A stretch of 64,000 nucleotides of DNA, taken from the NCBI RefSeq assembly GCF_002854065.1, contig NZ_CP024147.1; one strand, 5' to 3'. Every line of letters starts with the position of its first letter. The first letter of the stretch is position 1. The notes under the pieces are model-generated. The model saw nothing but the letters and a program-made list of their open reading frames with translations, searched no databases and was not told the origin of the DNA. Of this stretch, positions 39,124-62,116 are shown in pieces. The translations under genes were made by a program, and so were the position numbers. The DNA comes from Escherichia coli. Its GTDB lineage: Bacteria > Pseudomonadota > Gammaproteobacteria > Enterobacterales > Enterobacteriaceae.

Positions 39124-41306
39124 TCTGCCTCCCGAACCAGCCAGATAGTGGCCAGCGGTGGTAGCGTCAGGCTTAGTGAATGCTGACGACCGTGGCTGGC
39201 AATCTCATCGCTGTGTACCGTGCCGCCATTGCCTGCATTACTGCCGTGATAGTGCATGGAATCGGTATTGAGGATCTCACGCCATTTGCCTGGCTGATTA
39301 ATGCCGAAGCGATAATCATGACGCGGCACCGGCGTAAAGTTACTGGCAACAATGATTTCGTTACCCTCTTTATCGCGACGCACAAAGATCAGCACCGAGC
39401 GTTCTTTGTCATCCACCACCAGCCATTCAAAGCCGTACGGGTCAAAATCCAGTTCATGCATCGCTTTATGGTGGCGGTAGGTGAGGTTCAGATCGCGCAC
39501 CAGACGCTGGACACCGTGGTGCCAGTTATCGCCGCCTTCCAACAGATGCCAGTCGAGGCTGGCGTCATGGTTCCACTCGCGGCCCTGGGCAAATTCGTTC
39601 CCCATGAACAGCAGTTTCTTGCCCGGAAATGCCCACATCCAGCCATAGTAAGCGCGCAGGTTAGCGAATTTCTGCCATGCGTCGCCCGGCATGCGGTCGA
39701 GAATCGATTTTTTACCGTGGACCACTTCATCATGCGACAACGGTAGGACGAAGTTTTCAGTGTAGTTGTAGAGCATCCCGAAGGTCAGTTTATCGTGATG
39801 ATACTGACGATAAATCGGGTCGAGCTTCATGTAGTCCAGGGTGTCATGCATCCAGCCGAGGTTCCACTTGTACCAGAAGCCCAGACCGCCCATATCCTGC
39901 GGACGAGAAACGCCAGGGAAATCGGTAGACTCCTCAGCCATTGTCACCGCACCGGAAACCTGCTCACCAAGAATACGGTTGGTATTACGCAAGAATTCAA
40001 TCGCTTCAAGATTCTCGCGCCCGCCAAATTCGTTCGGGATCCACTCCCCCTCTTTACGGCTGTAGTCACGATAAATCATCGACGCCACCGCATCGACGCG
40101 CAGCGCATCAATACCAAAACGTTCAATCCAGTAAAGCGCGTTACCGACGAGGAAGTTACTGACTTCACGGCGACCATAGTTGTAAATCAGCGTGTTCCAG
40201 TCCTGATGATAGCCTTCGCGCGGATCGCTGTGTTCATACAAGTTCGTACCATCAAATTCGGCAAGCGCAAAGTCATCAGTCGGGAAGTGGCCTGGCACCC
40301 AGTCGAGAATCACGTTCAGACCAGCTGCGTGTGCAGCATCAATGAAATAACGGAAGTCGTCGCGAGTACCAAAACGGCGGGTTGGTGCATACAGGCCGGT
40401 TGGCTGATAACCCCAACTGCCATCGAAGGGATGCTCGTTAATGGGCAGTAGTTCGAGGTGGGTAAAGCCCATCCATTTAGCATAAGGCACCAGTTGATCG
40501 GCCAGCTCGCGGTAGCTCAACCAGAAATTGTTGTCGGTGTGGCGACGCCAGGAGCCCAGGTGAACTTCATAAATAGAGATTGGCGCATCAAACTGATTCG
40601 CTTTTTTGCGCTCTTCAGTCTGTACAACCTTTTCCGGCAGCCCGCAAATAAGAGACGCGGTTTCCGGGCGCATTTGCGCTTCGAAGGCATAAGGGTCGGA
40701 CTTCAGACGCAAGTTGCCATTGGCATCAATCATCTCGTATTTATAGAGCTGACCGTTATGCGCCCCAGGGATAAACAGTTCCCAGATGCCGCTCTCTTTA
40801 CGCAGGCGCATCGGGTGACGGCGACCGTCCCAGTAGTTGAATTGCCCAACCACCGAGACCCGACGGGCGTTTGGAGCCCAGACAGAGAAACGCGTACCTG
40901 TGACGCCATCCATAGTATCTGCATGCGCGCCTAAAGTTTCATACGGGCGCAGGTGAGTACCTTCAGATAATAGCCAGGCATCCATTTCCTGGATTAGCGG
41001 ACCAAAACGGTAAGGATCATCAATCAGGTTTTGCTGACCATGCCAGACAACAGCCAACTGATAGCGGAAAAAATTCTTACGTCGCGGAATGATGCCGCTA
41101 AAGAATCCCCGTGAGTCGAGACACTCCAGTTTTGCGAGTTTGCGCCCGGTTTTCGGTTCAATCACCCAGACATCGGTAGCGTCGGGTAAAAGGGCACGGA
41201 CTTCCAGTCCCGCGGTGGTTTTATGCATTCCCAGTACGGAAAAAGGATCCGCAAAATGGCCTGCAATTAGCGCGTTAATCACGTCTCTATCGATACGATC
41301 GGACAT
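39120..41306 (-). CDS. glgB: 1,4-alpha-glucan branching enzyme GlgB (728 aa)
   Basis: 728-aa [31 protein letters not shown]...; 4-nt overlap with glgX. Confidence 0.96.
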
Positions 41307-42873: not shown

Positions 42874-43467
42874 ATGAATGAAATCATTTCTGCAGCAGTT
42901 TTATTGATCCTGATTATGGATCCGCTCGGAAACCTACCTATTTTCATGTCCGTACTGAAACATACTGAACCGAAAAGACGGCGGGCAATCATGGTGCGAG
43001 AGTTGCTTATTGCTCTCCTGGTGATGCTGGTGTTCCTGTTTGCGGGTGAGAAAATTCTGGCATTTCTCAGCCTACGAGCAGAAACCGTCTCCATTTCTGG
43101 CGGCATCATTCTGTTTCTAATTGCCATTAAGATGATTTTCCCCAGCGCTTCAGGAAATAGCAGCGGGCTTCCGGCAGGTGAAGAGCCATTTATCGTGCCG
43201 CTGGCAATTCCGCTGGTCGCCGGGCCAACTATTCTCGCCACGCTGATGTTGTTGTCTCATCAGTACCCGAATCAGATGGGACATCTGGTGATTGCTCTGC
43301 TGCTGGCCTGGGGCGGCACCTTTGTCATCCTGCTACAGTCTTCGCTATTTTTACGTCTGCTGGGCGAGAAAGGGGTGAACGCACTTGAACGCCTGATGGG
43401 ATTGATTCTGGTGATGATGGCAACCCAGATGTTCCTCGACGGCATTCGAATGTGGATGAAGGGGTAA
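42874..43467 (+). CDS. yhgN: MarC-family inner-membrane protein YhgN (197 aa)
   Basis: 197-aa hydrophobic ORF MNEIISAAVLLILIMDPLGNLPIFMSVL... Confidence 0.93.
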   Translation: MNEIISAAVLLILIMDPLGNLPIFMSVLKHTEPKRRRAIMVRELLIALLVMLVFLFAGEKILAFLSLRAETVSISGGIILFLIAIKMIFPSASGNSSGLPAGEEPFIVPLAIPLVAGPTILATLMLLSHQYPNQMGHLVIALLLAWGGTFVILLQSSLFLRLLGEKGVNALERLMGLILVMMATQMFLDGIRMWMKG

Positions 43468-43472
43468 GGTTC

Positions 43473-43510
43473 AAACAGGTGCTGCACACAACCAGACGCG
43501 GCACCTGTTT
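43473..43510. terminator. Hairpin between yhgN and the DprA-like gene (possible bidirectional terminator)
   Basis: AAACAGGTGC-18 nt-GCACCTGTTT 10-bp inverted repeat followed by TTTTATTACC. Confidence 0.45.
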
Positions 43511-43512
43511 TA

Positions 43513-44715
43513 TTACCTGAACTGATAATGACCTTCGCCCAATCGGATAACCCTTCCCTCTTCTTCTGCGCGGTTCAGCCACACACTAATTTGTTCGATG
43601 GTTAAACCAGTACAAGACGCCAGCCTTTCAATACTTATCGATTCCTTTGCAAGGATCGCCAGTTCCGCCACAAAGAGTTGATAAAAATCGACAGGCGTAT
43701 ACGCGGGCATTACTGCGTAATTTGCGTCATCTTCATGCAGCGAAAACAGTTCTGGTTGAGCGTTACGGAGTGCTCTGTCATACATCAGCCCAGGAACGTC
43801 TGGCAGTCTGATCGTCACATTCTCAGCCTGTTCAGCACTCCATGACGCCCCATTTTCTACTAATCGTGAATTGGCTGATTGCATATCCTGATTTGGTTTA
43901 ACCTGCACAGGCAGCCACTGATGTTTTAATGCCTCCATCGCCCCGGTTATCGTTCCACCGGTCATTCCCGCACGTACAACCATTGCGCTTTCAGCAAGGC
44001 AATAAATATATTTATTTCGCGCCATCGCATTGCCGACGGTGAAACGTACCTCTGGGTAAAACGGCGAAATCAACACCAGGTTGCCTGCTATAAGCCCTTC
44101 ACGCCATTTCACTAACGTACTCGTTTTTAACAAGCTATCAGCTAATACGCCAACGGCAGTTCCCCCGGCCTCCAGTACCGACGCCATTGCACATTCATCA
44201 ATACCTCGCGCACCACCAGAGATAACGCAAATCCCCTGTTGGGCCAGTTTCGCGGCCAGTTGTTGGGTATAGCGCAAATCGTCAGTCGGAGCATCTCGCG
44301 AGCCAACAATCGCCATACCTTCCGCTTGCAGTAATGCTTTATTCCCGCAGCCAAATAAAACGGGAGGTGCATCCGTTCGCAATCGGTTTTTCAAGCGAAC
44401 GGGATAATCAGCATCTCCGCGGGTTAAGATCCATAAACCGGCGCGTTGCCACTTATCTACCGCCAACGCCAGACTATGACCACGCGCCAGCAAGCCAAGA
44501 ATACGCTCCTGAGAAATACGCGGATCGCTCCAGCCTGTAAGTTTCTCTTGCGGTTGCGGCACCAGAAGCTCGGCGGGACTGATACGTTGGTGCTTCAGCC
44601 ATAATGCAAACTTCCCCCATTCACTATTACTAAGAGGTTTATACTCACTCGCCGCCGCGCGAGAAAAATCGCTGGTTAGCAGGAGAGTTGCTTGTGCATT
44701 GGCTGAAAGATTCAT
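43513..44715 (-). CDS. DprA/Smf-like Rossmann-fold protein (about 400 aa), candidate antitoxin of a PsyrTA/ShosTA-like module
   Basis: ORF 43513..44808; DprA signature MAIVGSRDAPTDDLRYTQQLAAKLAQQGICVISGGARGIDECAMASVLEAGGTAVGVLADSL; start favoured at MNLSANAQ, whose ATG overlaps the upstream TGA (ATGA-type coupling). Confidence 0.75.
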   Translation of the reverse strand: MNLSANAQATLLLTSDFSRAAASEYKPLSNSEWGKFALWLKHQRISPAELLVPQPQEKLTGWSDPRISQERILGLLARGHSLALAVDKWQRAGLWILTRGDADYPVRLKNRLRTDAPPVLFGCGNKALLQAEGMAIVGSRDAPTDDLRYTQQLAAKLAQQGICVISGGARGIDECAMASVLEAGGTAVGVLADSLLKTSTLVKWREGLIAGNLVLISPFYPEVRFTVGNAMARNKYIYCLAESAMVVRAGMTGGTITGAMEALKHQWLPVQVKPNQDMQSANSRLVENGASWSAEQAENVTIRLPDVPGLMYDRALRNAQPELFSLHEDDANYAVMPAYTPVDFYQLFVAELAILAKESISIERLASCTGLTIEQISVWLNRAEEEGRVIRLGEGHYQFR

Positions 44716-46822
44716 CAATTTTTTACCGAGGTAGAAGCAAGGGCAAGAGGATAAACCGTCGGGCAACCTGCCTGGCGTAACAGTGCTGTCAGAACTGTCA
44801 GCGTCCATGCAGAATCCACGATATCGTCAACCAGCAACGCCGGACCAGGCATCAAAGGAGGGGTAATCACAAACGCCCCGTCGAGATTTTGACACTGGTG
44901 GAAACGGTTTTGCTGCATTTTCTGCGGTGGATTGTCCACGACTTTTTCAATGGCATCAATAATAGGTAAGCCAAGTTTCGCCGCCAGTCGCCGGGCAAAA
45001 TCAGGAACCAGGTCGAGGTGCTTTAATGAAGGAACGCAGCATACCCAGGTTGGTTCAGGATGCGGATTCCAGCGTTGGCGAACCATTTCCGCACATGCCT
45101 CCACCAGTTCATCACTGAATCGCCCCGTTTTTTTCTCCTGTGCTACCTGCTTTCCCCACCCGGAATCTCCCCAACGAGAAAGGATTCGCCCCGTAGATCC
45201 TTGTAAAATCGCAGGCAAGTTCCCTTTAAATCCGTATTGCGTAAAAGCCCCAGCTGCCACCTGTTTATTGAGATTTAATGACAGGTCAGCGTGTTTAATA
45301 AATAAGTTTGCCGCATGGAGTAAGCCGCTATCAATGTCGGGCGACAACAACGGATGCTGAAGACAACTGCTACATTTACCACAATGTTCGGCACCTGGCT
45401 CATCGAGTGCGCGGCGCAGAAATTGCATTTTGCACTCCTTGGTCGTGATATAGCTTTCAACGTCTGCCAGCTCACTTTTTCTCTGATTCATCAAATGGTT
45501 AATTCGTTCATGGTCAGGAGAAAAACTGACAATTGTTCTGCGCCATAATTTCTCGGTATACACCACAGGCGATGGATTTTCAGCTACCAATAATTTCAGT
45601 GCTTTTTCTATTTGCCCATAACGGAGATTCGTCCGTTGTTCAATGCCTCGTAAGGTAAGACCGTCATTCACGCTAAGTACGTTGAGTATTTCATGAATTT
45701 GCGCCTCCGCAGGAAAGGCGCTTTCACGGAAGAATTTATGAATAGCACGGTCTTCACTGCCGCAAAGCAGTATGCCAACAGCAGAATCGATACCGCGACC
45801 GGCACGCCCCACCTGTTGGTAGTAACCAACTATCGAACCTGGCATCTGGTAATGAATAACAAACCCCAAATCCGGTTTGTCAAAGCCCATTCCCAGCGCC
45901 GTTGTCGCAACCAGCACTTTAATTTTATTTGCCAGCAACGCCTGCTCCAGATATTCCCTGGCAGTATTAGAATCTTCCGCGCCTTCACAAGTCACGCCGC
46001 TGTAGTAAGCAAATGCACTGATACCATTTTTCCTTAACCACTCGGCGACAAGTTCGGCATCGCGAGTAGTCAGGGTATAAACAATTCCCGATTTGGAAAA
46101 CTGAGGGAAAACTGAGGGATAACCGTTGCTAACCATGCCAGACGGGATGACTGTTCACCTAAGACTAAGGCATCAAGCGCCAAACTTTCGCGAGCCAGCG
46201 TTCCACGCTGAATCACAATGTCACCCAATTGCTGACGGATATCCTCAACGACACGGTTATTCGCTGTCGCGGTTGTACCCAGAACAGGGGTATTCGCAGG
46301 TAGTTGGCGCAAAATATCTAATATACGTCGGTAATCCGGGCGAAAATCGTGGCCCCAATCAGAGATGCAGTGCGCCTCGTCGACCACAAGCAAGCCAATA
46401 TGATCGGCTATAGGATATAAAACCGTTTCGATAAAGTCCTGGTTTGCCAAACGTTCCGGGGAAACCAGCAAGCAATCGACCTCACCTTGCAGCAACTTAT
46501 CGCTAATGCGCTGCCATTCTTCTCTGTTTGTAGAATTCAACGTTTCAGCCGTAATACCTAACCGTTCAGCGGCGGCAACCTGGTTACGCATCAGGGCAAG
46601 CAAAGGAGAGATGATAATTGTCGGGCCAGCGCCGCGATCGCGGAAGATTTTACTGGCGATGAAGTACACAGCACTTTTCCCCCAGCCAGTGCGTTGGACA
46701 ACCAGCAGTTTTCGCCGTTGGTTCACCACCGCGTCTATGGCTTCCCATTGCCCTTCCCTGAAAGTAGCGGTGGTATTTCCTAACATCCGCTGTAAAAGCA
46801 ATTCAGCTGCGTGCTTTTCCAT
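44715..46822 (-). pseudogene. RecQ-like helicase fused to a C-terminal PRTase domain (PsyrT/RqlH-like toxin candidate), frameshifted by an 11-bp tandem duplication
   Basis: ORF 46070..46822 has helicase motifs I-III (QRTGWGKS, VVDEAHCISDWGHDFRPDYRRI, GTTATA); ORF 44715..46136 in another frame has helicase motifs IV-VI (YQQVGRAGRG) and a PRTase motif (LLVDDIVDSAWT); deleting one repeat copy at 46096..46117 joins them into about 698 aa. Confidence 0.75.
46095..46119. repeat. 11-bp perfect tandem duplication (GAAAACTGAGG x2) inside the helicase gene
   Basis: Forward ...tttgGAAAACTGAGGGAAAACTGAGGgat...; on the coding strand both frames read PQFS across the copies. Confidence 0.9.
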
Positions 46823-46924
46823 CTTTATCTCCTGCGATCTTTAGGCAGTGATTAGAACGGATTATTTGCAGGTAAATTTGCGAGAGAGATCAAAAAGATG
46901 AAGAGAGGAGAAAAGAGAAATGAA

Positions 46925-46948
46925 TTACTGCGAGCAAGCTCGCAGTAA
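46925..46948 (-). terminator. Hairpin downstream of gntU (candidate terminator)
   Basis: TTACTGCGAGC-aa-GCTCGCAGTAA perfect inverted repeat, then TTCATTTCTCTTTTCTCC on the minus strand; sits between the gntU stop and the helicase start. Confidence 0.5.
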
Positions 46949-46961
46949 TTTGTCGCAGTAA

Positions 46962-48302
46962 TTAACTCAACAGCTGGAACGCAATCATCCCAACGATGGC
47001 ACCGACAGTGCCGAGGATGGTTTCCATCATGGTCCAGGTTTTCAGCGTTTCGGCTTCGGTCGCGCCGGTAAATTTACCGAACAACCAGAAACCAGCGTCG
47101 TTAACGTGGCTGACAACAATCGAACCACCGGCGATACAAATCGACAGCGCCGCCATTTGCGCACCGGAGTAGTTCAGTTGTTCAATAACCGGCATCACCA
47201 GTCCCACCGCCGTTAAACAGGCAACGGTTGCAGAACCCTGAATGATGCGCACTGCAGCGGCCAGCACGAAGCAGGTGATGGCAATCGGCAGGCCCATGCC
47301 GGTTAACGCTTCGCCCAGTGCCGGACCTACGCCAGAGTCAACCAGCACCTGTTTGAACACGCCGCCCGCACCAATCACCAGCAGAATGATCCCCGCCGGT
47401 TGCAGCGCGTGACCGCAAATATCCATCACTTTGTCTTTTGGCATGCCCTGACGCATTGCCAGGCCATAAATCGCTACCAGACAAGCAACCAGAATCGCGG
47501 TAAACGGATGACCAATAAACTCGAACCATTCGTAAGCGGTAGAGCCTTCCGGCACAAAACGCGCGGCAATGGTTTTCAGCCCCACCAGCACCAGCGGCAG
47601 CAGGATCAGCGACAGGCTGAATCCGAAGGACGGCATTTTGCCTTCGCCGAGATGCGGCTCGCTGATGTCGTCAGGAATATGCAGCTCAACGTAACGGCTG
47701 ATGAAGTTACCCCACAGCGGCCCGGCAATAATCATTCCCGGAATTGCCGCACACAGGCCAATCAGGATCATCCAGCCAAAATCGGCGTTCATCTGCGATG
47801 CCAGCAGCATTGGCGCTGGCCCAGGCACCAGGAACGCCGCCGCGGCCGCCACGCCTGCGAATAATGGGATTACCAGCTTCACCAGGTTCGTACCGGTGTG
47901 GCGCGCCATTGAGAAAGCAACGCTAATCAGCAGAACAATCGCCACTTCAAAGAACAGCGGTAGCGCACAGACCAGCCCCGCAAGGCCGATGGCATAATGC
48001 GCGCGGCTGTGACCGAAGGATTTGAGCATTTTGACGGCAATCTGATCGACTGCGCCGGTTTCATGTAAGATCTTGCCAAACATAGCTCCCAGGGCGACAA
48101 CCACCGCCAGGAAGCCGAGGGTGCCTCCCATCCCTTTTTCCATCGTCGCTGCGATTTTATCGAGCGGCATACCGGAAAAAAGGCCAGCCCCCATGGACAC
48201 CACCATTAAAGCCAGGAAAGCGTGCATACGCGCCTTCATGACTAAAAACAGCAGCAGTAAAACAGACCCTACTGCTGTTAAAACAAGCGTTAATGTAGTC
48301 AC
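46962..48302 (-). CDS. gntU: Low-affinity gluconate transporter GntU (446 aa)
   Basis: 446-aa polytopic ORF MTTLTLVLTAVGSVLLLLFLVMKARMHAFLALMVV..., GntP family. Confidence 0.95.
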   Translation of the reverse strand: MTTLTLVLTAVGSVLLLLFLVMKARMHAFLALMVVSMGAGLFSGMPLDKIAATMEKGMGGTLGFLAVVVALGAMFGKILHETGAVDQIAVKMLKSFGHSRAHYAIGLAGLVCALPLFFEVAIVLLISVAFSMARHTGTNLVKLVIPLFAGVAAAAAFLVPGPAPMLLASQMNADFGWMILIGLCAAIPGMIIAGPLWGNFISRYVELHIPDDISEPHLGEGKMPSFGFSLSLILLPLVLVGLKTIAARFVPEGSTAYEWFEFIGHPFTAILVACLVAIYGLAMRQGMPKDKVMDICGHALQPAGIILLVIGAGGVFKQVLVDSGVGPALGEALTGMGLPIAITCFVLAAAVRIIQGSATVACLTAVGLVMPVIEQLNYSGAQMAALSICIAGGSIVVSHVNDAGFWLFGKFTGATEAETLKTWTMMETILGTVGAIVGMIAFQLLS

Positions 48303-48305
48303 TAC

Positions 48306-48833
48306 TTATTTGCCTTTTTTAATAACCTCAATGGTGCTTGCCACAACACCTTCCAGCGGTTGATCGATATCCACCACCAGTACATCGGTTTCGTCCGCAC
48401 CCGGCTCCTGCAGCGTTTCAAACTGCGTCACCAACATTTGGGTTTTAAAGAAATGGCCTTTGCGCGCTTTCAGGCGGCTTTCAATCACATCAAAATCGCC
48501 TTTCAGGTAGATGAAAGAGAGATTCGGATTACCTTCACGCAGCAAGTCGCGATAGTGTTTTTTCAATGCAGAACAGACGATCAGTGACACTTTATTAGTG
48601 CGCTGCATAGCAAACGCGGCGTCGTTCAGCGCCTGCAACCACGGTTTGCGATCGTCGTCATTCAGCGGTTCGCCAGACGCCATTTTTTCGATATTGCGCC
48701 GTGGATGGAGGAAATCGCCATCAAGAAACGCGGCATGAAGTTGATGCGCCACTTCACTGGCGACCGCAGATTTGCCGCTGCCCGATACGCCCATCAAGAC
48801 GTAAATGTGGTGATCATGGTTAGTCGTGCTCAA
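48306..48833 (-). CDS. gntK: Gluconokinase GntK (175 aa), apparent TTG start
   Basis: ORF 48306..48854; product recognised from (M)STTNHDHHIYVLMGVSGSGKSAV; the codon at that start is TTG. Confidence 0.88.
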   Translation of the reverse strand: MSTTNHDHHIYVLMGVSGSGKSAVASEVAHQLHAAFLDGDFLHPRRNIEKMASGEPLNDDDRKPWLQALNDAAFAMQRTNKVSLIVCSALKKHYRDLLREGNPNLSFIYLKGDFDVIESRLKARKGHFFKTQMLVTQFETLQEPGADETDVLVVDIDQPLEGVVASTIEVIKKGK

Positions 48834-48863
48834 AGTGGTGCCCCCACAATACAAGAATTAAAA

Positions 48864-48893
48864 AATGTTACGGGTAACTGTTATCGGTAACAT
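48864..48893. promoter_or_regulatory. GntR operator-like palindrome upstream of gntK
   Basis: AATGTTACgggtaactgttatcgGTAACATT with outer inverted repeat ATGTTAC/GTAACAT, about 30 bp upstream of the gntK start. Confidence 0.55.
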
Positions 48894-48972
48894 TCTCCGG
48901 CCGGACAATATCAGAAGCAATATCCATCCGTGCCTTAAGTGTATAAGTGTGAGCTACTTCAAATTTGTGGGC

Positions 48973-49968
48973 TTAAATAGATCCGCCCGGTGACAAGGTG
49001 AAACCTAAATCTAACATTTTCGGTGTCACAGATTCGCCACGAATACGCGCCAGAAGGCGTTCAGCGCCAATACTGCCCATCCGCTCACGCGGCGTCAGCA
49101 CGCTCGCAAGTCGTGGCTCCATCACCTGACCAATGTCATGACCGTGGAAACCGGCAATCGCCATATCGTCAGGAACTTTTAACCCCAGACGCTGACATTC
49201 AAACGCCGCGCCGACCGCCAGATCATCATTAGTACAGAACACGCCATCCAGCTGCGGATATTCCCGCCGCGCCTGGCGAATCAGTTCAATACCGGAAGAG
49301 TAAGAAGAAGATTGCTCAACCATCACGCTATACGGCACCAGGCCTGCATCCAGCATCGCCTGTTCGTATCCCTTCTGTTTGATGATAGTACGTTCGTCGA
49401 GACGTGCGCCGAGATAGGCAATATGGCGATGCCCGCGAGCAATAATGGCGGTGGTCATCTGGCGTGCCGCTTCAAAGTTATCAAAACCGACGGCGATATC
49501 GAGGCACGGCGACTTGCTGTCCATCAGTTCCACCACGGGAATACCCGCCACTTCAATCATCTTTAAGGTGCGCGGCGTGTGCGTACGTTCAGTGAGGATC
49601 AGGCCGTCGATATTCCAGGAGAGCATGGATTCGAGGCGTTCTTGCTCCATTTCCGGTTTATAACCGTAGTGGGCCAGCATGGTCTGATAACCGTGCGCGT
49701 CGGTGACGCTTTCGATTCCGCGTAATACTTCCGCGAAAACCTGGTTGGTGAGAGAAGGTAACAGGACGCCAATCGCCCGGCTGGTGGCGTTAGAGAGGAT
49801 ATCGGGCGCACGATTGGGAATATAGCCCAGTTCATCAAGAGCCGCGGCAATCTTGCCGCGTAGAGCGACGGAAACCTGCTCCGGGTTGCGTAAAAAACGG
49901 CTGACCGTCATTTTGGTCACGCCTACACGGTCAGCCACATCCTGAAGTACGGGTCTTTTCTTTTTCAT
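48973..49968 (-). CDS. gntR: LacI-family gluconate repressor GntR (331 aa)
   Basis: 331-aa ORF MKKKRPVLQDVADRVGVTKMTVSRFLRNPEQVS... (HTH plus periplasmic-binding-like fold). Confidence 0.95.
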   Translation of the reverse strand: MKKKRPVLQDVADRVGVTKMTVSRFLRNPEQVSVALRGKIAAALDELGYIPNRAPDILSNATSRAIGVLLPSLTNQVFAEVLRGIESVTDAHGYQTMLAHYGYKPEMEQERLESMLSWNIDGLILTERTHTPRTLKMIEVAGIPVVELMDSKSPCLDIAVGFDNFEAARQMTTAIIARGHRHIAYLGARLDERTIIKQKGYEQAMLDAGLVPYSVMVEQSSSYSSGIELIRQARREYPQLDGVFCTNDDLAVGAAFECQRLGLKVPDDMAIAGFHGHDIGQVMEPRLASVLTPRERMGSIGAERLLARIRGESVTPKMLDLGFTLSPGGSI

Positions 49969-50191
49969 CGTCCTGAAGGTACAAAAGAGATAGATTCTCT
50001 TAGTTTAACACGGACGCATCAGAACCTTCCCGGGGAAAACAGTGCTTGTTTACAATTATTAGATATACACTAAATCAATTGCATCGCATTGTGCTAACGA
50101 CGCGGCAAAACCCCGGAAGCGTACATCAGCACGCGACCGGAGCGAGCGAGGAAGCCTGCAAAAAGGCAGGCTTCAAAGATGCCGTTGAGTT

Positions 50192-50887
50192 TTAAACCGG
50201 CGGCAGATCGAACAGTAACACTTCGCTGTCGCTATCCGCATGGATGGAGATTGCCTGCTCATCCCAGATTGCCAGACCATCGCTGGTCGAGGCTTTCACG
50301 CCGTTAATGGTGACATTGCCTTTCACCACCTGGATCCAGACGCGGCGTTCAGCGGCAATCTGATGCACCGACTGCTCATCTTTCAGCAACGCCCAGCGGT
50401 ACAGTTCCATATCCTGATGCACTTTCAATGAGCCATCTCGCGCATCCGGCGAGAGCACCAGCTGTTTGCCCTGTACGGCATCGAAGCGACGCTGTTCATA
50501 ACGCGGCGTAATACCGTTTTCTTCAGGCATGATCCAGATCTGATACAGATGCAGACGCTCGGTGCTGCTTGGGTTGTACTCTGAGTGACGAATACCCGTA
50601 CCAGCACTCATAATCTGGAACTCACCCGCCGGAACCTGCTCTTTATTGCCCATGCTGTCCTGGTGCTCAACAGTACCTTCCAGCACGTAGGTCAAAATTT
50701 CCATATCTTTATGCGGGTGAGTGCCGAAGCCCTGCCCTGCTTCAATCACGTCGTCGTTAATCACGCGCAGCGCGGAGAAGCCCATAAAGTTCGGATCGTA
50801 ATAGTTGGCAAAAGAGAAAGTATGCCAGGAGTCCAGCCAGCCATGATTTGCATGACCACGTTCATTTGCTTTGCGTAAGTAGATCAT
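50192..50887 (-). CDS. yhhW: Pirin-like cupin (quercetin 2,3-dioxygenase) YhhW (231 aa)
   Basis: 231-aa ORF MIYLRKANERGHANHGWLDSWHTFSFANYYDP... Confidence 0.93.
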   Translation of the reverse strand: MIYLRKANERGHANHGWLDSWHTFSFANYYDPNFMGFSALRVINDDVIEAGQGFGTHPHKDMEILTYVLEGTVEHQDSMGNKEQVPAGEFQIMSAGTGIRHSEYNPSSTERLHLYQIWIMPEENGITPRYEQRRFDAVQGKQLVLSPDARDGSLKVHQDMELYRWALLKDEQSVHQIAAERRVWIQVVKGNVTINGVKASTSDGLAIWDEQAISIHADSDSEVLLFDLPPV

Positions 50888-51009
50888 TTGTATTCGCCCC
50901 CTGAATGATTTCGATGGGCTTAGTGTGGACCCGATCTGCCTGGGATGATAGAGGGTGAAAATTGCCCCCTCTGTTCAAAAAAATTGAACTATTAGAGGGG
51001 CCATCAAAC

Positions 51010-52047
51010 TTACTTCGCGAGAGTCACTGTGGAGGGAGAGGCTTGCTCGAATCCGCGTTCAAGGATTTCCAGATTGGTAAGAACTTCAGATTCCTTGACG
51101 TAATTTGGCGCACCGTGGGTGATGGTTTGATACAACGCATCATAAACGCGCCCGTAATCGCCCATCTCCGGCTTCATCTCTTCTCTGACCGTCACGCCCT
51201 CGTCATTGACATACTCCAGCACACCGACCGAATCATCCGCTGCGAATCCCGGTTCGCCCGGCATAATATTAGCCTTCAGGCTGGTTTCCTGCTGGTCGAT
51301 ACCGTATTTAATAAACGAACCTTTCTTACCGTGAACGATAAATTTCGGATAATCGATTTTCACCAGATGGCTGGTTTTGACGATGGCTTTTAGATCGCCA
51401 TAAAACAGTTGCGCTTCGAAAGTATCGTCAGGATTGGCTTTAATGCGCAGGCTGCGGATGTCATAAGCGACGTGATCCGGGCGACCGAACAGAGAAATAA
51501 TCTGGTCCATCGTATGCACACCAAGGCCATAGAACGCGCCATCCTGCGGCAGCCCAGGTTTGGTTTCTGCCACCGGGCGGTAATAGTCAAAATGGCTTTC
51601 CACTTCGACAATCTCTCCCAGCTTGCCGCTTTCAATCGCTTTTTTCGCCGTCAGGAAGCAGGAATCAAAGCGACGATTCTGATATGGCGTGACGGTCAGC
51701 CCTTTGCTTTTCGCCAGTGCAAACAGCTCTTTCGCCTGCGCAAGTGTCGGAGTGAACGGTTTTTCGACCAGCACATTTTTCCCGGCTTCCAGCGCGCGCT
51801 TCGCGTACTCGAAGTGGCTGTCCGCATGGGTGCAGACAACAACCAGCTTAACATCGGGATCGTTTAGCACTTCGTTGAGATCGCTGGTGAAATGGATATG
51901 AGAGTAAATGGGAGCTTGTTCTTCCGGCTTTGCATGGCGGCGAAAAATATGCGCGACATGCCAGCTATCCTTGCGGTTAAGTACATACGGCAGATGGTAA
52001 CGGGTGGTGCTTTTGCCGAAGCCAATAAAGGCGCAGTTGATGACCAT
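51010..52047 (-). CDS. yhhX: Gfo/Idh/MocA-family NAD(P)-dependent oxidoreductase YhhX (345 aa)
   Basis: 345-aa ORF MVINCAFIGFGKSTTRYHLPYVLNRK... Confidence 0.93.
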   Translation of the reverse strand: MVINCAFIGFGKSTTRYHLPYVLNRKDSWHVAHIFRRHAKPEEQAPIYSHIHFTSDLNEVLNDPDVKLVVVCTHADSHFEYAKRALEAGKNVLVEKPFTPTLAQAKELFALAKSKGLTVTPYQNRRFDSCFLTAKKAIESGKLGEIVEVESHFDYYRPVAETKPGLPQDGAFYGLGVHTMDQIISLFGRPDHVAYDIRSLRIKANPDDTFEAQLFYGDLKAIVKTSHLVKIDYPKFIVHGKKGSFIKYGIDQQETSLKANIMPGEPGFAADDSVGVLEYVNDEGVTVREEMKPEMGDYGRVYDALYQTITHGAPNYVKESEVLTNLEILERGFEQASPSTVTLAK

Positions 52048-52169
52048 GATTTCGTCCTTTTTAAGGTGGTTATTTACACCTTAGCGCAAAGCGGACGTGG
52101 TTCCTACTGGAGTGCGCATAACGAACACAAGCACTTCCCGAGGATAAATTGAGAACGAAAGATCAAAAA

Positions 52170-52259
52170 AAAAGCCAGCACCCGGCTGGCTAAGTAATAC
52201 TGGAAGCAATGTGAGCAATGTCGTGCTTTCAGGTTCTCCGCGAGGGTCTTCCTGATCGC
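52170..52259 (-). ncRNA. ryhB: Iron-responsive small RNA RyhB (90 nt)
   Basis: Minus-strand GCGATCAGGAAGACCCTCGCGGAGAACCTGAAAGCACGACATTGCTCACATTGCTTCCAGTATTACTTAGCCAGCCGGGTGCTGGCTTTT matches RyhB as I recall it, with the terminator hairpin plus T-run. Confidence 0.9.
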
Positions 52260-52261
52260 GA

Positions 52262-52286
52262 GACAATAATAATCATTCTCATTCGC
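52262..52286 (-). promoter_or_regulatory. Fur box overlapping the ryhB promoter
   Basis: Minus-strand GAATGAGAATGATTATTATTGTC resembles the Fur consensus and overlaps a TATTAT -10 placed 7 nt upstream of the RyhB 5' end. Confidence 0.75.
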
Positions 52287-52380
52287 ACTTGTCCAACACT
52301 TTTTGCAAAAAAATGCATTTGACTCGCATTCGAAAGTCAATGATGTTGAAAGGGACTTTTACCCCAAAGAGGACAAAGGA

Positions 52381-52869
52381 ATGAGTGAGATAGTGATACG
52401 CCATGCTGAAACGCGCGATTACGAGGCCATCAGGCAGATTCACGCCCAGCCGGAGGTGTATTGCAACACACTACAACTACCTCATCCTTCGGAAGGCTGG
52501 TGGCCAGAAAGATTGAAAGATCGCCAGGGTTTTAAACAACTGGTTGCCTGCATTGATGGCATCGTAGTGGGTCATCTTTTCATTGAGGCTTATCAAGGCC
52601 CACGCCGCAGTCATGTTGCAACTTTTGGTATCTGTGTTGACTCCCGCTGGCACAACCGCGGCATCGCCAGCGCCCTGATCCGCGAATTGATTGAAATGTG
52701 CGACAACTGGTTACGGATAGATCGTATTGAGTTGACGGTGTTTGCGGATAACGCCCCGGCAATCACAGTCTATAAAAAATTCGGATTTCACATAGAAGGC
52801 ACCGGCAAAAATTACGCTTTTCGTAATGGTGAATATGTCGATGCGTATTATATGGCGCGGGTGAAATAG
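52381..52869 (+). CDS. yhhY: GNAT-family N-acetyltransferase YhhY (162 aa)
   Basis: ORF 52303..52869; start set at MSEIVIRHAETRDYEAIRQIHAQPEV. Confidence 0.9.
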   Translation: MSEIVIRHAETRDYEAIRQIHAQPEVYCNTLQLPHPSEGWWPERLKDRQGFKQLVACIDGIVVGHLFIEAYQGPRRSHVATFGICVDSRWHNRGIASALIRELIEMCDNWLRIDRIELTVFADNAPAITVYKKFGFHIEGTGKNYAFRNGEYVDAYYMARVK

Positions 52870-52894
52870 AGAATTTGCAATCTAAGTTTGTCAT

Positions 52895-52925
52895 TTAAGC
52901 CCTCACCTACCGGGAGAGGGCTTAA
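52895..52925. terminator. Hairpin between convergent yhhY and ggt
   Basis: TTAAGCCCTC-acctaccggg-GAGGGCTTAA inverted repeat in the 60-bp gap. Confidence 0.45.
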
Positions 52926-52929
52926 GATA

Positions 52930-54675
52930 TTAATACCCCGCCGTTAAATCATCCACCGAGCGCGGGTCGGATGCGCCGTACAACTCACCGTCCGGCCCAA
53001 CCATAATGCTTTGTGTACTGCCCATCGCCTCTTTCAGCGCCACTTTCTGACCTTTTGCTTCCAGCAGCTTGAGCGTATCCGGGCTAAACCCTTTTTCGAC
53101 ACGCAGCTCGTCCGGCAACCACTGATGGTGGAAACGCGGCGCATTGGTCGCTTCGGCGACATTCATACCATAATCGATGCTATTCACCACCATTTGAAGC
53201 ACGGTGGTAATGATCCGGCTCCCGCCAGGGCTACCGGTGACCAGCCAGGTTTTACCGTCTTTCACCACAATGGTGGGTGACATCGATGACAGCGGGCGTT
53301 TGTTCGGCCCGACGGCGTTGGCATCACCGCCCACCAGCCCATAAATGTTCGGTACGCCCGGTTTGGCGGAGAAATCATCCATCTGGTTATTAAGCAGAAT
53401 ACCGCTCTCGCCCGCGACAATGCCCGTACCGAAGGTGGTGTTCAGCGTATAGGTCACCGCCACCGCGTTACCATCTTTATCCACCACTGAGTAATGGGTA
53501 GTTTGATTACTCTCATAAGGCGCAAGCTTACCAGGGCGAATCTCGCTGGACGGTTTCGCTTTATTGATATCGATTTGCTCGGCAATAGATTTGGCATAGG
53601 CTTTATTGGTCAGCGCCTGCCACGGGACTTTGACAAAATCCGGGTCGCCAAGATATTCCGAGCGGTCAGCGTAGGCATATTTCTCCGCTTCTGCCATGAT
53701 CTGCATCGCGTCGGCGCTGCCAAAACCGTATTTCTTCATATCGAAGTTTTCCAGAATATTGAGGATTTGTACGATATGGATCCCGCCGGAGGATGGCGGT
53801 GGCATGGAGTAAACCTGATACCCGCGATAATCGCCGCTTATCGGTGTGCGTTCGACTGCTTTATACGCCGCTAAATCTTCTTTAGTGATCAGGCCACCGT
53901 TTTTCTGCATCTCCTGGGCAATCTGTTCCGCTATCGTGCCTTTGTAGAATTCGTCCGGGCCGTTTTCGGCAATCATCTCCAGGTTCTTTGCCAGGTTCGC
54001 CTGCACCAGCTTGTCGCCCTTTTTCAGCGGCTCGCCCTCTTTCCAGAAGATAGCCTTGCTGTTTTCGTGATTCGGCAGCACTTCGCTCCCGTAGGTTTTG
54101 AGATCGTCAGCCAGCGCGTCGTTAACGATAAAACCATCGCGTGCCAGTTTAAACGCTGGCTGCACCACTTTGTTCAACGGCATTGTGCCGTATTTATCCA
54201 ACGCCAGCGAGAAACCAGCGACCGTACCGGGCGTGCCGGAAGCCAGATGCGAAGTGAGTGATTTTTTGCTGTCCGGGTTGCCCTGGTCATCGAGAAACAT
54301 ATCGCGGGTCGCTTTGGCGGGTGCCATTTCGCGGAAATCGATAGCGGTGGTATTGCCATTTTTCGAGCGGATCAGCATAAAACCACCACCGCCCAGATTC
54401 CCTGCCTGCGGATGCGTTACCGCCAGCGCGTAGCCCACAGCCACGGCGGCATCAACGGCATTCCCGCCCTCCTTGAGGATATCCACCCCCACCTGAGTGG
54501 CAGTAGCATCTACAGATGCCACCATCCCCTGTTTCGCGCGTACCGGATGAAAGACATCTTCCTCCACGCCGTAAGAAACAGGAGACGGCGCAGGTGGCGC
54601 GGCTACCGTACTAAAACAACTTCCTGAGAGCAGAGCAGCAATGGCCACCCGGCGTAAAAACGTCGGTTTTATCAT
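52930..54675 (-). CDS. ggt: Gamma-glutamyltranspeptidase Ggt (about 580 aa)
   Basis: ORF 52930..54702; start set at MIKPTFLRRVAIAALLSGSCFS (signal peptide); autoprocessing Thr in ...QTTHYSVVD... Confidence 0.94.
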   Translation of the reverse strand: MIKPTFLRRVAIAALLSGSCFSTVAAPPAPSPVSYGVEEDVFHPVRAKQGMVASVDATATQVGVDILKEGGNAVDAAVAVGYALAVTHPQAGNLGGGGFMLIRSKNGNTTAIDFREMAPAKATRDMFLDDQGNPDSKKSLTSHLASGTPGTVAGFSLALDKYGTMPLNKVVQPAFKLARDGFIVNDALADDLKTYGSEVLPNHENSKAIFWKEGEPLKKGDKLVQANLAKNLEMIAENGPDEFYKGTIAEQIAQEMQKNGGLITKEDLAAYKAVERTPISGDYRGYQVYSMPPPSSGGIHIVQILNILENFDMKKYGFGSADAMQIMAEAEKYAYADRSEYLGDPDFVKVPWQALTNKAYAKSIAEQIDINKAKPSSEIRPGKLAPYESNQTTHYSVVDKDGNAVAVTYTLNTTFGTGIVAGESGILLNNQMDDFSAKPGVPNIYGLVGGDANAVGPNKRPLSSMSPTIVVKDGKTWLVTGSPGGSRIITTVLQMVVNSIDYGMNVAEATNAPRFHHQWLPDELRVEKGFSPDTLKLLEAKGQKVALKEAMGSTQSIMVGPDGELYGASDPRSVDDLTAGY

Positions 54676-54794
54676 CGTTATTCTCCAGAGATTAAGGGGC
54701 AACCCCAGCTAAGCCTGGTATATAACTCTGAATTAATCCTGATGATTGCAGGAAAGGAGTAAACTTAAAGAATATCTTCAGAGGAGGATACGCG

Positions 54795-55235
54795 ATGAAA
54801 CGACTTCTGATTCTTACGGCACTCCTGCCGTTTTTCGGCTTTGCACAGCCCATTAATACTCTGAACAACCCTAACCAGCCGGGGTATCAGATCCCCAGTC
54901 AGCAGCGGATGCAAACCCAGATGCAGACTCAGCAAATCCAGCAAAAAGGGATGCTGAATCAGCAACTGAAAACGCAAACTCAGTTGCAACAACAGCATTT
55001 AGAAAACCAGATAAACAATAATTCTCAGCGGGTGTTGCAGTCACAGCCGGGGGAGCGAAATCCCGCCCGGCAGCAAATGCTGCCCAACACCAATGGCGGG
55101 ATGTTAAACAGCAACCGTAATCCGGATAGTTCGTTGAATCAGCAGCATATGTTGCCGGAGAGGAGAAACGGCGACATGCTGAATCAGCCCGGCACGCCGC
55201 AGCCTGATATACCGTTGAAAACTATTGGGCCGTAA
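54795..55235 (+). CDS. yhhA: Secreted Q-rich protein YhhA (DUF2756, 146 aa)
   Basis: 146-aa ORF with signal peptide [19 protein letters not shown] and low-complexity Q/N-rich body. Confidence 0.9.
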
Positions 55236-55965
55236 AGTTCGGACCAATCACATCAATCGCATCGGTACAGATGCAATCCACGCCCCAGCGCAGCAACTCT
55301 GCCGCGCGCTGGGGTTTATTGACGGTATAAACCAGAATCCGTAATCCGGCGTCTTTCAACTGCATCACTCGCGCTTTATCGAGTAACTTATGATTGAGAT
55401 GAATAGAGACGCAGCCCAGCCGCGCGGTCAGTTCTCGCCAGTCGTCGCGCCACTCATCCAGCAACAAACCGCGCGGCAGTTCTGGTACTGCCTGTTGTGC
55501 GGCTTCTAAAGCATCAATCTCAAACGATGACAGTAGCGGCGGCGTCATACCGGCCCACAGCTCGCGTGCCGCCAGCGCCACCATTTTGCCCGTTAATGGC
55601 CCGGTGCCAGTGGTGGGTTTGATTTCGATATTCGCCATCATCCCATGTTCGCGACAGCGTTCCGCCACCTGCGAAAGCAACGGCAGCGGCTCACCTTTAA
55701 ACGCTTTGCCGTACCAACTGCCTGCATCCACACGTAGTAAATCCTGCCAGTTCAGTTCACCCGCGACGCCCCAGCCGTTGCTGGTACGTTCAAGATTGTC
55801 GTCATGGAGCAGAAAGATCTCGCCATCTTTCGATAACTTCGCGTCAAATTCGATCATCTTATGACCGTATTTTGCCCCGACGTCGGTTGCCGCCAGGGTG
55901 TTTTCCGGGGCCAGCTTACCGCCGCCACGATGTGCGACGATGCGGGGATAAGGCCAGTTACTCAT
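55222..55965 (-). CDS. ugpQ: Glycerophosphodiester phosphodiesterase UgpQ (247 aa)
   Basis: 247-aa [29 protein letters not shown]... Confidence 0.95.
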
Positions 55966-57032
55966 ACTCGTTGTCCTGTTTCACCATCAAAAAGATGCAG
56001 CTGATTTTCCGCCAGATGCAGCCACAGCGTGCTGCCTGCCGTCGGGCGCTCCTGATGCGCCAGTCGCACCACCAGCTTCTGTTCGCCCCAGCGTCCGTGC
56101 GCCAGGTTATCTGCGCCGAGGATCTCCAGCGTGTCCATCACCAGCGGTACGCCGCCTTCTGCCTGCGAGCTTAGCGCAATATGTTCCGGGCGAATGCCGA
56201 GAGTCATTTTACGCCCGGCATACTGACGGTAGCCACCGTTTAGCGGTAGCACGATACCGCCGTCCAGTTCAAAATGCGTGCCTTCATTATTCACGCGGCC
56301 TGTCAGCAGATTCATCGCCGGACTGCCAATAAAACTCGCCACAAACAGGCTGGCGGGCTTTTCGTAGACTTCAACTGGCGTGCCAATCTGTTCGGCAACG
56401 CCGCCGTTCATCACCATTACTCGCTGGGCGAGCGTCATCGCCTCAACCTGATCGTGAGTAACGTAGAGTGATGTCGTTTTCAGGCGACGGTGCAGCTGTT
56501 GCAGTTCAAGACGCATCTGTACGCGCAGCTTGGCATCGAGGTTAGAGAGTGGCTCATCAAACAGGAACACCGCCGGATCGCGCACAATCGCGCGGCCCAT
56601 CGCCACACGCTGACGCTGACCGCCGGAAAGCTCGCGCGGGCGGCGCTTAAGCAGACCGTCCAGTTCCAGAATGCGCGCCGCCTCTTTAACGCGCTCGGCA
56701 ATTTGCTGCTTGCCCATGCCGCGAATTTTCAGCCCCCACGCCATGTTTTCTTCAACACTCATATGCGGATAAAGCGCGTAGTTCTGGAACACCATCGCAA
56801 TCCCGCGATCTTTCGGCTCCATTTCGGTCACCCGCTGGTCGTTGATCCAGATATCGCCTTCCGTCACCCGCTCCAGCCCGGCAACCATGCGCAGCAGCGT
56901 CGATTTCCCGCAGCCTGACGGCCCGACCATCACGATAAATTCGCCATCCGCCACATCAAGGGTCAGCGGTTTAATCACCTGGGTTTTGCCATCCCAGCTT
57001 TTGGTTACTGCCTGTAATTTCAGTCCTGCCAT
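55962..57032 (-). CDS. ugpC: sn-glycerol-3-phosphate ABC transporter ATPase UgpC (356 aa)
   Basis: ORF 55962..57071; start set at [20 protein letters not shown]; Walker [10 protein letters not shown], signature LSGGQRQR. Confidence 0.95.
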
Positions 57033-57033
57033 C

Positions 57034-57879
57034 TTATTTCTCACTATCGACCAGGCCGCGCACGAAGGCACGCTGCATCACTAAAACAATCACTACTGGT
57101 GGGATCAGGGTTAACAACATCGCCGCCATCACTGAGTTCCATTCTGTGGTGCCTTCGCCAGTGGCGATCATCCCTTTGATCCCTGCCACGGTGGTGCCGA
57201 GATCCACGTCGGTAATAATCAACAACGGCCACAAATACTGGTTCCAGCCGTAAATAAAGGTGATCACAAACAACGCCGCCAGATTAGTTTTGGACAACGG
57301 AAAAACGATGTCGCAAAAGAAGCGCATTGGCGATGCGCCGTCGATCCGCGCGGCTTCCACCAGTTCATCCGGTAGGGTCATAAAGAACTGGCGGAAAAGA
57401 AACGTCGCGGTCGCCGAGGCCATCAGCGGCAGCGTTAAACCTGCGTAGCTGTCGAGCATCTTCAGGTTGGCGATGACTTCCACCGTCGGGAAGATACGTA
57501 CTTCAACCGGCAACATCAGGGTGATAAAAATCATCCAGAAAAAGAGGTTACGCAGCGGAAAACGAAACCAGACAATGGCGAATGCCGAGAGCATCGAGAC
57601 GGTAATTTTGCCGAGCGTAATGCTGAACGCCATCACGAAGCTGTTAAGCAACATCCGCCAGAACGGCGCACTATTTGTGCCTACCCCGTTTACCCAGATG
57701 TTGTGGATGTTTTCCAGCAGATGCGTGCCGGGGATGAGCGTCATCGGCGCGGCGTAGATGGCCTGTTTATCCAGCGTCGCCGCGACAAACGCCACGTACA
57801 GCGGGAATAGGATCACCGCGATCCCGAGGATCAGCATGGTATGGCTGAATATCGTCAGCCACGGACGGTTCTCAATCAT
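57034..57879 (-). CDS. ugpE: sn-glycerol-3-phosphate ABC transporter permease UgpE (281 aa)
   Basis: 281-aa [32 protein letters not shown]... Confidence 0.95.
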
Positions 57880-58763
57880 TGGTAACGCACCTTGCTTTCA
57901 ACATAGCGGAACTGCACCACCGTCAGCACGATGACGAGGAACATCAACACCACCGACTGTGCGGCAGACGAAGCCAGATCCAGTCCGGTAAAGCCTTCAC
58001 GGTAGATCTTATAAATCAGCGTCGTGGTGGCCTGCACCGGCCCACCGGACGTGGCGGCGTCGATCACCGGGAAGGTGTCGAAGAAGGCATACACCAGGTT
58101 CACTACCAGCAGGAAGAAACTCACCGGAGCGATAAGCGGTAGCGCAATCTTAAAGAAGCGGCGAATCGGGCCTGCGCCATCAATGGCTGCGGCTTCAATC
58201 AACGAACGGGGAATGGATTGCAGCGCGGCATAGAAGAACAGAAAGTTGTAGCTGATTTGCTTCCACACCGAGGCAAACACCACCAGAAACATCGCCTGAC
58301 CGCTGTTTTGCGCGTGGTTCCAGTCGTAGCCGAACTCGGCGAGAAAATGAGTGATCAGCCCGCGACCGGGGTTAAACAAAAATATCCACAATACGGCGGC
58401 AACGGCGGGAGCCACGGCATACGGCAGCAGCATCAAGGTTTGATAGAAACGACTGCCGCGCACGATGTACTCCACCAGCGCCGCAAAGAACAGCGATACC
58501 AGCAAACCGCTGACGGTGACAAAGGTGCTGAATTTTATCGTCGTCCAGAAGGAGTCGATATAGTAGCTGTCATGAAACAGCGCGACGAAGTTATCCAGGC
58601 CGACAAACTGGCTAGAGAAACCAAACGGATCGACGCTTTGTAGCGAGTACCACAACGCTTCGCCCGCAGGCCAGATAAAAAAGATAACGGTGATGATGAG
58701 CTGCGGCGCGACCAGCAAATAAGGCAACCAGCGCGAGCGGAACACCGGACGGGATGATGACAT
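57876..58763 (-). CDS. ugpA: sn-glycerol-3-phosphate ABC transporter permease UgpA (295 aa)
   Basis: 295-aa [32 protein letters not shown]... Confidence 0.95.
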
Positions 58764-58783
58764 TACGGTTAATTCCTGAACTG

Positions 58784-58854
58784 TGCCGGATGCGCTTCGC
58801 TTATCCGGCCTACACGCGATGCCAGGTCAGATAAGCGAAACGCATCCGACATTA
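58784..58854. repeat. REP/BIME element between ugpA and ugpB
   Basis: tgccggatgcgcttcgcttatccggcctaca plus inverted partner gataagcgaaacgcatccgacatt. Confidence 0.7.
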
Positions 58855-58860
58855 CACTGA

Positions 58861-60177
58861 TTAAGACTTCGTCGATTTCTCAAAGCGGCGCAGTAACTGG
58901 TTCCCACGCTCAACGGCGGTATCCAGTGCCTGCTGCGGTGTCTTCTTACCGGTCCACACGCTCTCCAGCTCTTCATCCACAATCACGCGGATCTGCGGCA
59001 TGTTGCCCAGACGCAGCCCTTTGGTGAACGGCAATGGCGGCTTGTTCAGCATCTGACGCGTCGCGGTATCCGCCCCTGGGTTTTTCTCATAAAAGCCCTG
59101 CTCACGAGTCAAGTCATACGCCGCTTTGGTGATTGGCAGATAACCAGTTTTCTGATGCCACTCGGCAGCATTTTCTGGCTTAGCGAGGAAGTCGAGGAAC
59201 TTCGCCACGCCGGTATAAGTTTCTTTATCTTTGCCCTGCATCACCCACAGGCTGGCCCCGCCGATAATGGCGTTTTGCGGTGCATCTTTCGCATCGGCGT
59301 CGTAAGGCATCATGCCTACGCCATAGTTGAATTTGGCGTACTCGCGAATATTAGCGAGAGAACCGGAAGAGGCGGTGGTCATCGCGCAATCACCGTTATA
59401 GAACTTCTCGGTGGATTCATCCTTACGCCCGACGTAGCTGAAATCGCCCTTCTTGTTCATCTCTTCGAGCATGGCGATGTGTTTCACCTGCTCCGGCTTG
59501 TTGAACTCCAGCACCGCATCCGTGCCGTCAAAGCCGTTGTTTTTGCTGGCAAACGGCAGACCGTTCCAGGCGCTAAAGTTTTCCAGTTGGATCCAGCCCT
59601 GCCAGCCGCTGGCGTAGCCGCACTTCATTCCGGAGGCTTTCAGTTTTGCAGAATAGTCCGCCAGATCCTGCCAGGTTTTCGGCGGCTGTTCCGGGTCTAA
59701 TCCTGCTTTCTTGAAGGCGTCTTTGTTGTAATAGAGAACGGGGGTCGAGCTGTTGAATGGCTGGGAGAGTAAGTGGCCGGTTTTGCTGTCGGAGTAGTAA
59801 CCGGAAACCGTCGGCACAAACTGCGACTCATCGAATTGAATCCCCGCCTCTTTAAACACGTCATATACCGGTTTAATGGCTTTCGACGCCATCATGGTGG
59901 CGGTGCCAACTTCATAAACCTGCAAAATAGCCGGAGCGTTGCCGGTACGAAATGCGGCAATCCCCGCGCTTAAATTCTGTTCGTAGTTGCCTTTATAGGT
60001 CGGTACAATTTTGTAATCCGGGTTTTCGGCGTTAAAACGTTGGGCCAGAGAATCCACCTCTTTACCCAGTTCCCCTTCCATAGAATGCCAGAACGGAATG
60101 GTCGTCACTGCCTGTGCATTCCCCATTAACGCCAGTCCGAGCGCCAGTGCTGAAGCTGTATAATGTAACGGTTTCAT
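58861..60177 (-). CDS. ugpB: sn-glycerol-3-phosphate-binding periplasmic protein UgpB (438 aa)
   Basis: 438-aa [41 protein letters not shown]... Confidence 0.96.
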
Positions 60178-60296
60178 CGTTTATCTCTCTTGTTGTACCG
60201 AATGCGCGAATTCACGCGTTTTATGCTCGCGGGGTAACATGACATGCTCGAATTACAGAAAAATAACTTTTTTGTTACATTTGTAAGATAGTAAGG

Positions 60297-61392: not shown

Positions 61393-61401
61393 ATTGATAA
61401 T

Positions 61402-62115: not shown

Positions 62116-62116
62116 C

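Follow-up and report, generated by a model that had tools for sequence, protein, structure and literature searches.

In the Escherichia coli DNA analyzed here (the window, a single stretch of 64 kb), the psyrT (rqlH) toxin gene is interrupted by an exact 11-bp tandem duplication, while its DprA-like partner gene, psyrA (rqlI), retains an intact open reading frame (ORF). We regard it as very likely that this arrangement represents ordinary toxin-first decay of the PsyrTA module, in which a lineage-specific slippage duplication cost psyrT its function, the allele came to be shared by a whole clade, and psyrA was left intact. The event is of a known kind in a known system. Public annotation already marks the gene as a pseudogene, and the 11-bp duplication is specific to one clade.

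PsyrTA, also described as RqlHI, is a toxin-antitoxin and anti-phage system (Russell & Mulvey 2015, PMC4670107; Millman 2022, bioRxiv 10.1101/2022.05.11.491447), the second of which cites Sberro 2013. According to PMC4670107, RqlH alone causes SOS induction, filamentation, and growth inhibition, and RqlI binds and counteracts RqlH. A psyrA deletion construct was not transformable, and PsyrTA is listed among anti-phage systems (bioRxiv 10.1101/2022.05.11.491447). PsyrTA of E. coli NILS69 gave no detectable protection under the conditions of one native-host study. Our search of the literature from 2023 onward returned no mechanistic or structural PsyrTA paper, and the results were dominated by "PSYRATS" psychiatry papers.

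Structure of the duplication and its effect on psyrT

The 11-mer GAAAACTGAGG occurs twice in exact tandem on the + strand of the window, at 46096-46106 and 46107-46117 (CCTCAGTTTTC twice on the coding strand), as had been noticed in a sequence-only reading of this DNA. No third copy was found on either strand of the 64-kb window. The period-11 run covers 46095-46119 (GGAAAACTGAGGGAAAACTGAGGGA), and the corresponding TRF array (46095-46123, 2.6 copies) is longer: the next bases, GGATAAC, form an imperfect partial copy that was there before the duplication. By our calculation, exact 11+11 tandems are expected by chance about 0.015 times per 64 kb. Across the whole window, TRF reported just two further small imperfect arrays, one at 40077-40109 (period 14, 2.3 copies, 89% matches) and the other at 56072-56103 (period 16, 2.0 copies, 81% matches).

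The single-copy sequence already contains GGAAAAC and GGATAAC, 11 nt apart, together with a GGA microhomology. We propose that replication slippage duplicated the 11 bp in the lineage of the window, and that slippage was probably aided by this microhomology and the imperfect repeat.

The psyrT pseudogene occupies 44715..46822 on the minus strand. Removing one copy of the 11-mer in silico restored a continuous ORF whose 698-aa product agrees with the length of about 698 aa predicted earlier. The reconstructed protein matched the PADLOC PsyrT model over nearly its whole length (E = 0, 1061.7 bits; residues 3-697 aligned to profile positions 5-687 of 689) and scored 253 bits against NCBIfam recQ_fam, for which the cut-off is 219.8. 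Pfam domains were assigned as DEAD (23-194), Helicase_C (239-339), RecQ_Zn_bind (443-484), and a weak Pribosyltran match (605-683); the PRPP loop VDDIVD at residue 661 corresponds to D663 of Russell & Mulvey. A PDB search with PsyrT recovered RecQ-core relatives only, with nothing beyond the RecQ core. The single-copy product thus combines an N-terminal RecQ-family helicase core with a C-terminal PRTase domain. Together with the full-length PADLOC match of its neighbor to PsyrA, and with the roles described for the two proteins (PMC4670107; bioRxiv 10.1101/2022.05.11.491447), this upholds the earlier interpretation of the pair as a toxin and a DprA-like partner.

The duplication places 11 extra nt after psyrT codon 239 and shifts the frame, and the aligned gap relative to ES5 and O157:H7 was located at 46095-46105. 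The toxin ORF is consequently divided in two, and every element of the frame description given in the sequence-only reading was reproduced in the ORF translations. The N-terminal fragment (46070..46822, minus strand, 250 aa) comprises native residues 1-239 followed by an 11-residue tail and a stop, its junction reading TVIPQFS and then LSFPNRELFIP. These native residues span the first helicase lobe and include its Walker A (residue 46) and DEAH (148) motifs. The C-terminal ORF (44715..46136, minus strand, 473 aa) runs SVFPQFS and then KSGIVYTL, regaining the native frame at K240, and contains the second helicase lobe, the Zn-binding region, and the PRTase domain. The insertion lies between the two RecA-like helicase lobes, within their linker and immediately ahead of the KSGIVYT strand. 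Ribosomes that initiate at the native start codon now reach a stop after 250 residues, leaving a first-lobe stub and a downstream ORF devoid of a ribosome-binding site. The full-length helicase-PRTase toxin would thereby be lost, and the defense function with it.

The psyrT start is preceded by a good Shine-Dalgarno sequence (AGGAG at 46829-46833), and none was found upstream of the ATG at 46136, which directly follows CATCCCGTCTGGC; the 473-aa ORF is thus probably not translated efficiently. A terminator-like hairpin after gntU (46923..46950, minus strand) confines the space for the psyrTA promoter to about 100 nt (46823-46922). A simple scan of 43400-47000 gave no sigma-70 consensus match, either for psyrTA or for an internal psyrA promoter.

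Any -1 slip within the last 36 nt ahead of the stop at 46070 would bring ribosomes back into the native frame. It could accordingly be imagined that a programmed -1 ribosomal frameshift ahead of this stop yields full-length PsyrT with four extra residues. Inspection of the zero frame (TTT TCC CTC AGT TTT CCA AAT CGG GAA TTG TTT ATA CCC TGA) disclosed no X XXY YYZ slippery heptamer. The arrangement was also not conserved, being present in 2 and missing from 1,648 of 1,650 orthologues, and secondary lesions have piled up downstream of it. We consider programmed frameshifting exceedingly improbable.

The DprA-like partner gene psyrA

The psyrA gene lies directly downstream of psyrT and overlaps it (43513..44715, minus strand, 400 aa counted from M32), and a longer ORF at 43513..44808 is also intact. 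The product matched PADLOC PsyrA (7.2e-202, residues 32-431 on profile positions 1-397 of 398) and, more weakly, the PADLOC ShosA models (4.9e-26). It also aligned with solved DprA and ShosA (9vzo) structures in the PDB, including the SGGARGID loop.

PGAP annotates psyrA as a 431-aa gene starting at 44808, with a 94-nt overlap with psyrT. This start is probably too far upstream. We place the start at M32 (44715) on the basis of the PADLOC profile fit, the calls of other gene callers, and the literature, in which full-length RqlI is given as 1-400 (PMC4670107). The ATG at 44715 overlaps the psyrT stop as TGATG, an arrangement that suggests translational coupling of the two genes. If they are coupled, the psyrT frameshift could exert a polar effect on psyrA.

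The psyrA ORF was intact in all eight clade members inspected, in line with the earlier remark that the DprA-like gene is retained. Changes in psyrA within the clade amounted to one synonymous and one nonsynonymous substitution (G198S), too few for selection on psyrA after toxin loss to be assessed. The nonsynonymous change lies in the SGGARGID loop (window position 44217; codon 198 in the 431-aa and 167 in the 400-aa numbering) and was found in CUWW06 and in one further clade locus (L011). Conservation of this loop extends from PsyrA to DprA proteins of solved structure, and the window keeps G at 198. G198S may be a sign that constraint on the antitoxin eased once the toxin was lost, but it is a single substitution.

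Distribution of the duplication among E. coli genomes

The locus was present in 1,650 of 5,426 complete E. coli genomes (about 30%), always on the chromosome. Seven complete-genome loci were inspected on both flanks, and each was bounded by yhgN on one side and gntU on the other. We counted the duplication with a 121-nt query spanning the repeat. Only CUWW06 and strain 100416 matched this query at 100%, and the remaining 1,648 locus-bearing genomes showed an 11-nt gap. Because nearly all orthologues (1,648 of 1,650) carry a single copy, the two-copy state is an insertion relative to the ancestral single copy, and not a general property of the gene with a continuous frame of its own. In RefSeq, PGAP marks the CUWW06 allele as a pseudogene ("frameshifted") and its DprA neighbor as intact.

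The two complete genomes with the duplication are very close to the window: CUWW06 is separated from it by one SNP (44217), and strain 100416 by an IS5 insertion and one SNP. Over the 17 kb on the gntU side (47000-64000), identity of about 100% was seen only with these two genomes. The next-best genome reached just 99.0%, indicating that the lineage is rare among complete genomes.

In a collection of 15 billion proteins, the exact 250-aa frameshift product was found on 225 contigs (356 index blocks) that originate from NCBI isolates, Logan assemblies, and ENA gut metagenomes. The exact 473-aa ORF appeared on 1 contig, which is explained by gene callers picking other starts (for example, a 426-aa call) and not by rarity of the allele. 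The double 11-mer was present in 5/5 fetched loci, which showed 0-7 SNPs per 8.7 kb relative to the window.

These counts bear on the suggestion, raised in the sequence-only reading, that the duplication is a sequencing or assembly artefact and that the true genome is single-copy. Nothing beyond that prior suggestion speaks for it. The duplication is shared by three separate assemblies, all of them complete or near-complete (the window, CUWW06, and strain 100416), the exact frameshift product recurs on the 225 contigs, which come from a variety of projects and kinds of sample, and an 11-bp non-homopolymer duplication is atypical of platform errors. We discard the artefact explanation, to which we attach next to no probability.

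Perfect tandem duplications can in principle revert exactly by slippage, and outside the duplication the window's psyrT is undamaged. From this one could argue that the two-copy tract is a contingency locus, in which a return to one copy reactivates the module. Copy number did not vary among close isolates: all eight clade members inspected had two copies and every non-clade genome had one. In addition, two copies of an 11-mer lend themselves poorly to slippage next to genuine contingency tracts, and some clade members carry irreversible second lesions. A reversible switch is thus very improbable in our judgment.

The second lesions are of several kinds. Strain 100416 carries IS5 at psyrT codon 222, and within the region of the 473-aa ORF, Q463* was found in L011 and L677P in another clade locus (L008). 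The allele is disrupted relative to the ancestral state, inherited throughout the clade, and joined by further lesions, as would be expected of a fixed pseudogene. The clade has diversified since the duplication, and its psyrT bears the signature of a pseudogene drifting free of constraint. This qualifies the earlier proposal of a recent inactivation. Inactivation is supported as the most reasonable interpretation, but "recent" holds only in a relative sense: the clade in which the allele became fixed has gone on to gain SNPs and secondary psyrT lesions.

A different view of the split gene would be that it is still active, with weak translation of the C-terminal ORF preserving PRTase-dependent toxicity or defense, so that psyrA is still needed. 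The ORF is open over 473 codons in the window, reinitiation could support low-level translation, and psyrA is intact throughout the clade members inspected. The available text of PMC4670107 maps toxicity to the PRTase domain, requiring D663, and reports that the helicase-dead variants K49A and D148A are still toxic, implying that helicase activity as such is dispensable. The truncations described there are PRTase-deleted and PRTase-alone forms, none of them resembling residues 240-698. The same text reports that the PRTase alone is not toxic, which implies that other parts of RqlH are required. Moreover, the ATG at 46136 has no Shine-Dalgarno sequence before it, IS5 cuts the ORF off from the native promoter in strain 100416, and the clade tolerates the upstream IS5, Q463*, and L677P, a pattern that fits neutral drift. 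Continued activity of the split gene seems decidedly unlikely to us. Even with the PRTase domain intact in its 473-aa ORF, the copy in the window is very probably non-functional as a toxin-antitoxin or defense module.

Independent psyrT lesions and the order of decay

Loss of psyrT integrity was not confined to the duplication clade. In O55:H7 RM12579, psyrT has lost 1 bp at codon 173 and carries Q332*. O157:H7 PV15-279 shares both lesions and has a third in the PRTase region, where 29 bp at codon 606 are exactly duplicated in tandem (window-equivalent positions 46306, 45818, and 44967-44995). The decay of psyrT is stepwise in the O55:H7 to O157:H7 lineage. All sampled O55:H7/O157:H7 genomes had a broken psyrT, and PsyrA was identical in O55:H7 and O157:H7 (WP_001398326.1).

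Three other strains carry further disruptions, namely an extra C at codon 548 in XJ6-3, a 1.2-kb ISKpn26-family insertion sequence at codon 15 in S1-KEN-03-A, and, in g1-11, an integrated IncI1 conjugal-transfer segment (traF/H/I/J) that takes the place of approximately the first 200 codons. In the O55:H7 and O157:H7 genomes and in these three strains, psyrA is annotated as intact. In all, psyrT has been broken independently in at least four lineages besides the duplication clade.

We used 60 evenly spaced genomes among the 1,650 that bear the locus as a sample. This sample also served for the O157-type allele because a short query over both copies of the 29-bp duplication is uninformative, with single-copy genomes likewise aligning at 100% in two overlapping pieces. 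Length anomalies were found in psyrT in 13 of the 60 genomes (about 22%; 10 of them O157-type) versus none of the 60 for psyrA. Among all 1,650 genomes, psyrA was covered to at least 80% in one place in every case, and psyrT was found in a single place in 1,642.

This asymmetry should not be taken as statistically decisive, given phylogenetic non-independence and the 1.7:1 ratio of gene lengths. With three informative secondary lesions, our own arithmetic gives p ~0.26 for the psyrT versus psyrA difference under neutrality. Toxin-first decay leaving an orphan antitoxin is the generic expected route for toxin-antitoxin systems.

PMC4670107 reports that an F11 ΔrqlI mutant is sick and that transposon insertions in rqlH rescue it. 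Because loss of psyrA first is deleterious, as shown for F11, the only viable route to loss of the module begins with psyrT. We accordingly propose that the duplication allele was passed to the whole clade, where psyrT decay would be continuing, and that psyrA is still intact since its loss would be safe only after that of the toxin and too little time may have passed for psyrA lesions to appear. With the first lesion constrained to psyrT, three informative secondary lesions, and psyrT 1.7 times longer, the persistence of psyrA needs no continued selection, though it is compatible with it.

A more speculative possibility is that the orphan PsyrA is selected for a role of its own, such as neutralizing incoming PsyrT- or ShosT-like PRTase toxins (anti-addiction) or DNA repair, or that a weakly active C-terminal fragment keeps PsyrA essential. 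We consider this unlikely. If true, it would explain how at least five separate psyrT breaks, including that of the whole O55:H7/O157:H7 group, occurred with no ORF-breaking or length lesion of psyrA in the sampled genomes. Toxin-first decay is the most economical account and the one that we prefer.

Implications for surveys of PsyrTA

The direct significance of the duplication is small, as it concerns a lineage-specific pseudogene in a characterized toxin-antitoxin and defense system that the NCBI pipeline has already flagged. Of modest use are the list of independent psyrT lesions, with the steps seen in O55:H7/O157:H7, and a caution on presence calls. Because a sizeable share of psyrT genes is broken (about 22% of the evenly spaced locus-bearing sample, mostly O157:H7-type), HMM-based censuses of PsyrTA may overstate the number of functional systems unless ORF integrity is checked. 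One census of defense systems found PsyrTA enriched in E. coli phylogroup E2, with an odds ratio of 7.8 (bioRxiv 10.1101/2022.08.21.504612). If E2 corresponds to O157:H7-like strains, that count would include pseudogenized toxin genes.

The repeated toxin-only lesions also provide a natural set of alleles. They could be used to ask what toxicity requires of RqlH outside the PRTase domain, and whether the DprA-like antitoxin has any function when the toxin is absent.

Comparison with known systems

The locus in the window resembles PsyrTA/RqlHI in having the same two genes in the same order with the same overlap, full-length PADLOC matches, and a 400-aa RqlI, and its gntU-side neighbor agrees with the operon description of Russell & Mulvey. 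It differs in that the toxin gene is frameshifted, and the copy is for this reason very probably inactive.

ShosTA is similar in pairing a PRTase toxin with a DprA-like antitoxin, and the toxins of ShosTA and PsyrTA both cause filamentation and DNA damage (PMC11961720, PMC12961424). Unlike the PsyrT of the window, ShosT has no RecQ helicase domain. The solved ShosA (residues 1-313) has a SAM domain before the DprA fold, whereas PsyrA is 400 aa long with a putative HTH at its C terminus.

Other interrupted rqlH alleles offer further parallels. In Shigella sonnei 53G, an insertion element separates the helicase and PRTase parts of rqlH, according to PMC4670107. In this strain, as in O55:H7/O157:H7 and in the window, the toxin gene is interrupted and the antitoxin gene is kept. 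The O55:H7/O157:H7 alleles also occupy the same chromosomal site as that of the window, and the O157:H7 allele likewise carries a short exact tandem duplication (29 bp). The positions and types of the lesions in S. sonnei 53G and O55:H7/O157:H7 are different from those in the window. Overall, the locus follows the generic course of toxin-first decay with nothing distinctive about it, as lesions build up in the toxin gene and the antitoxin ORF persists.
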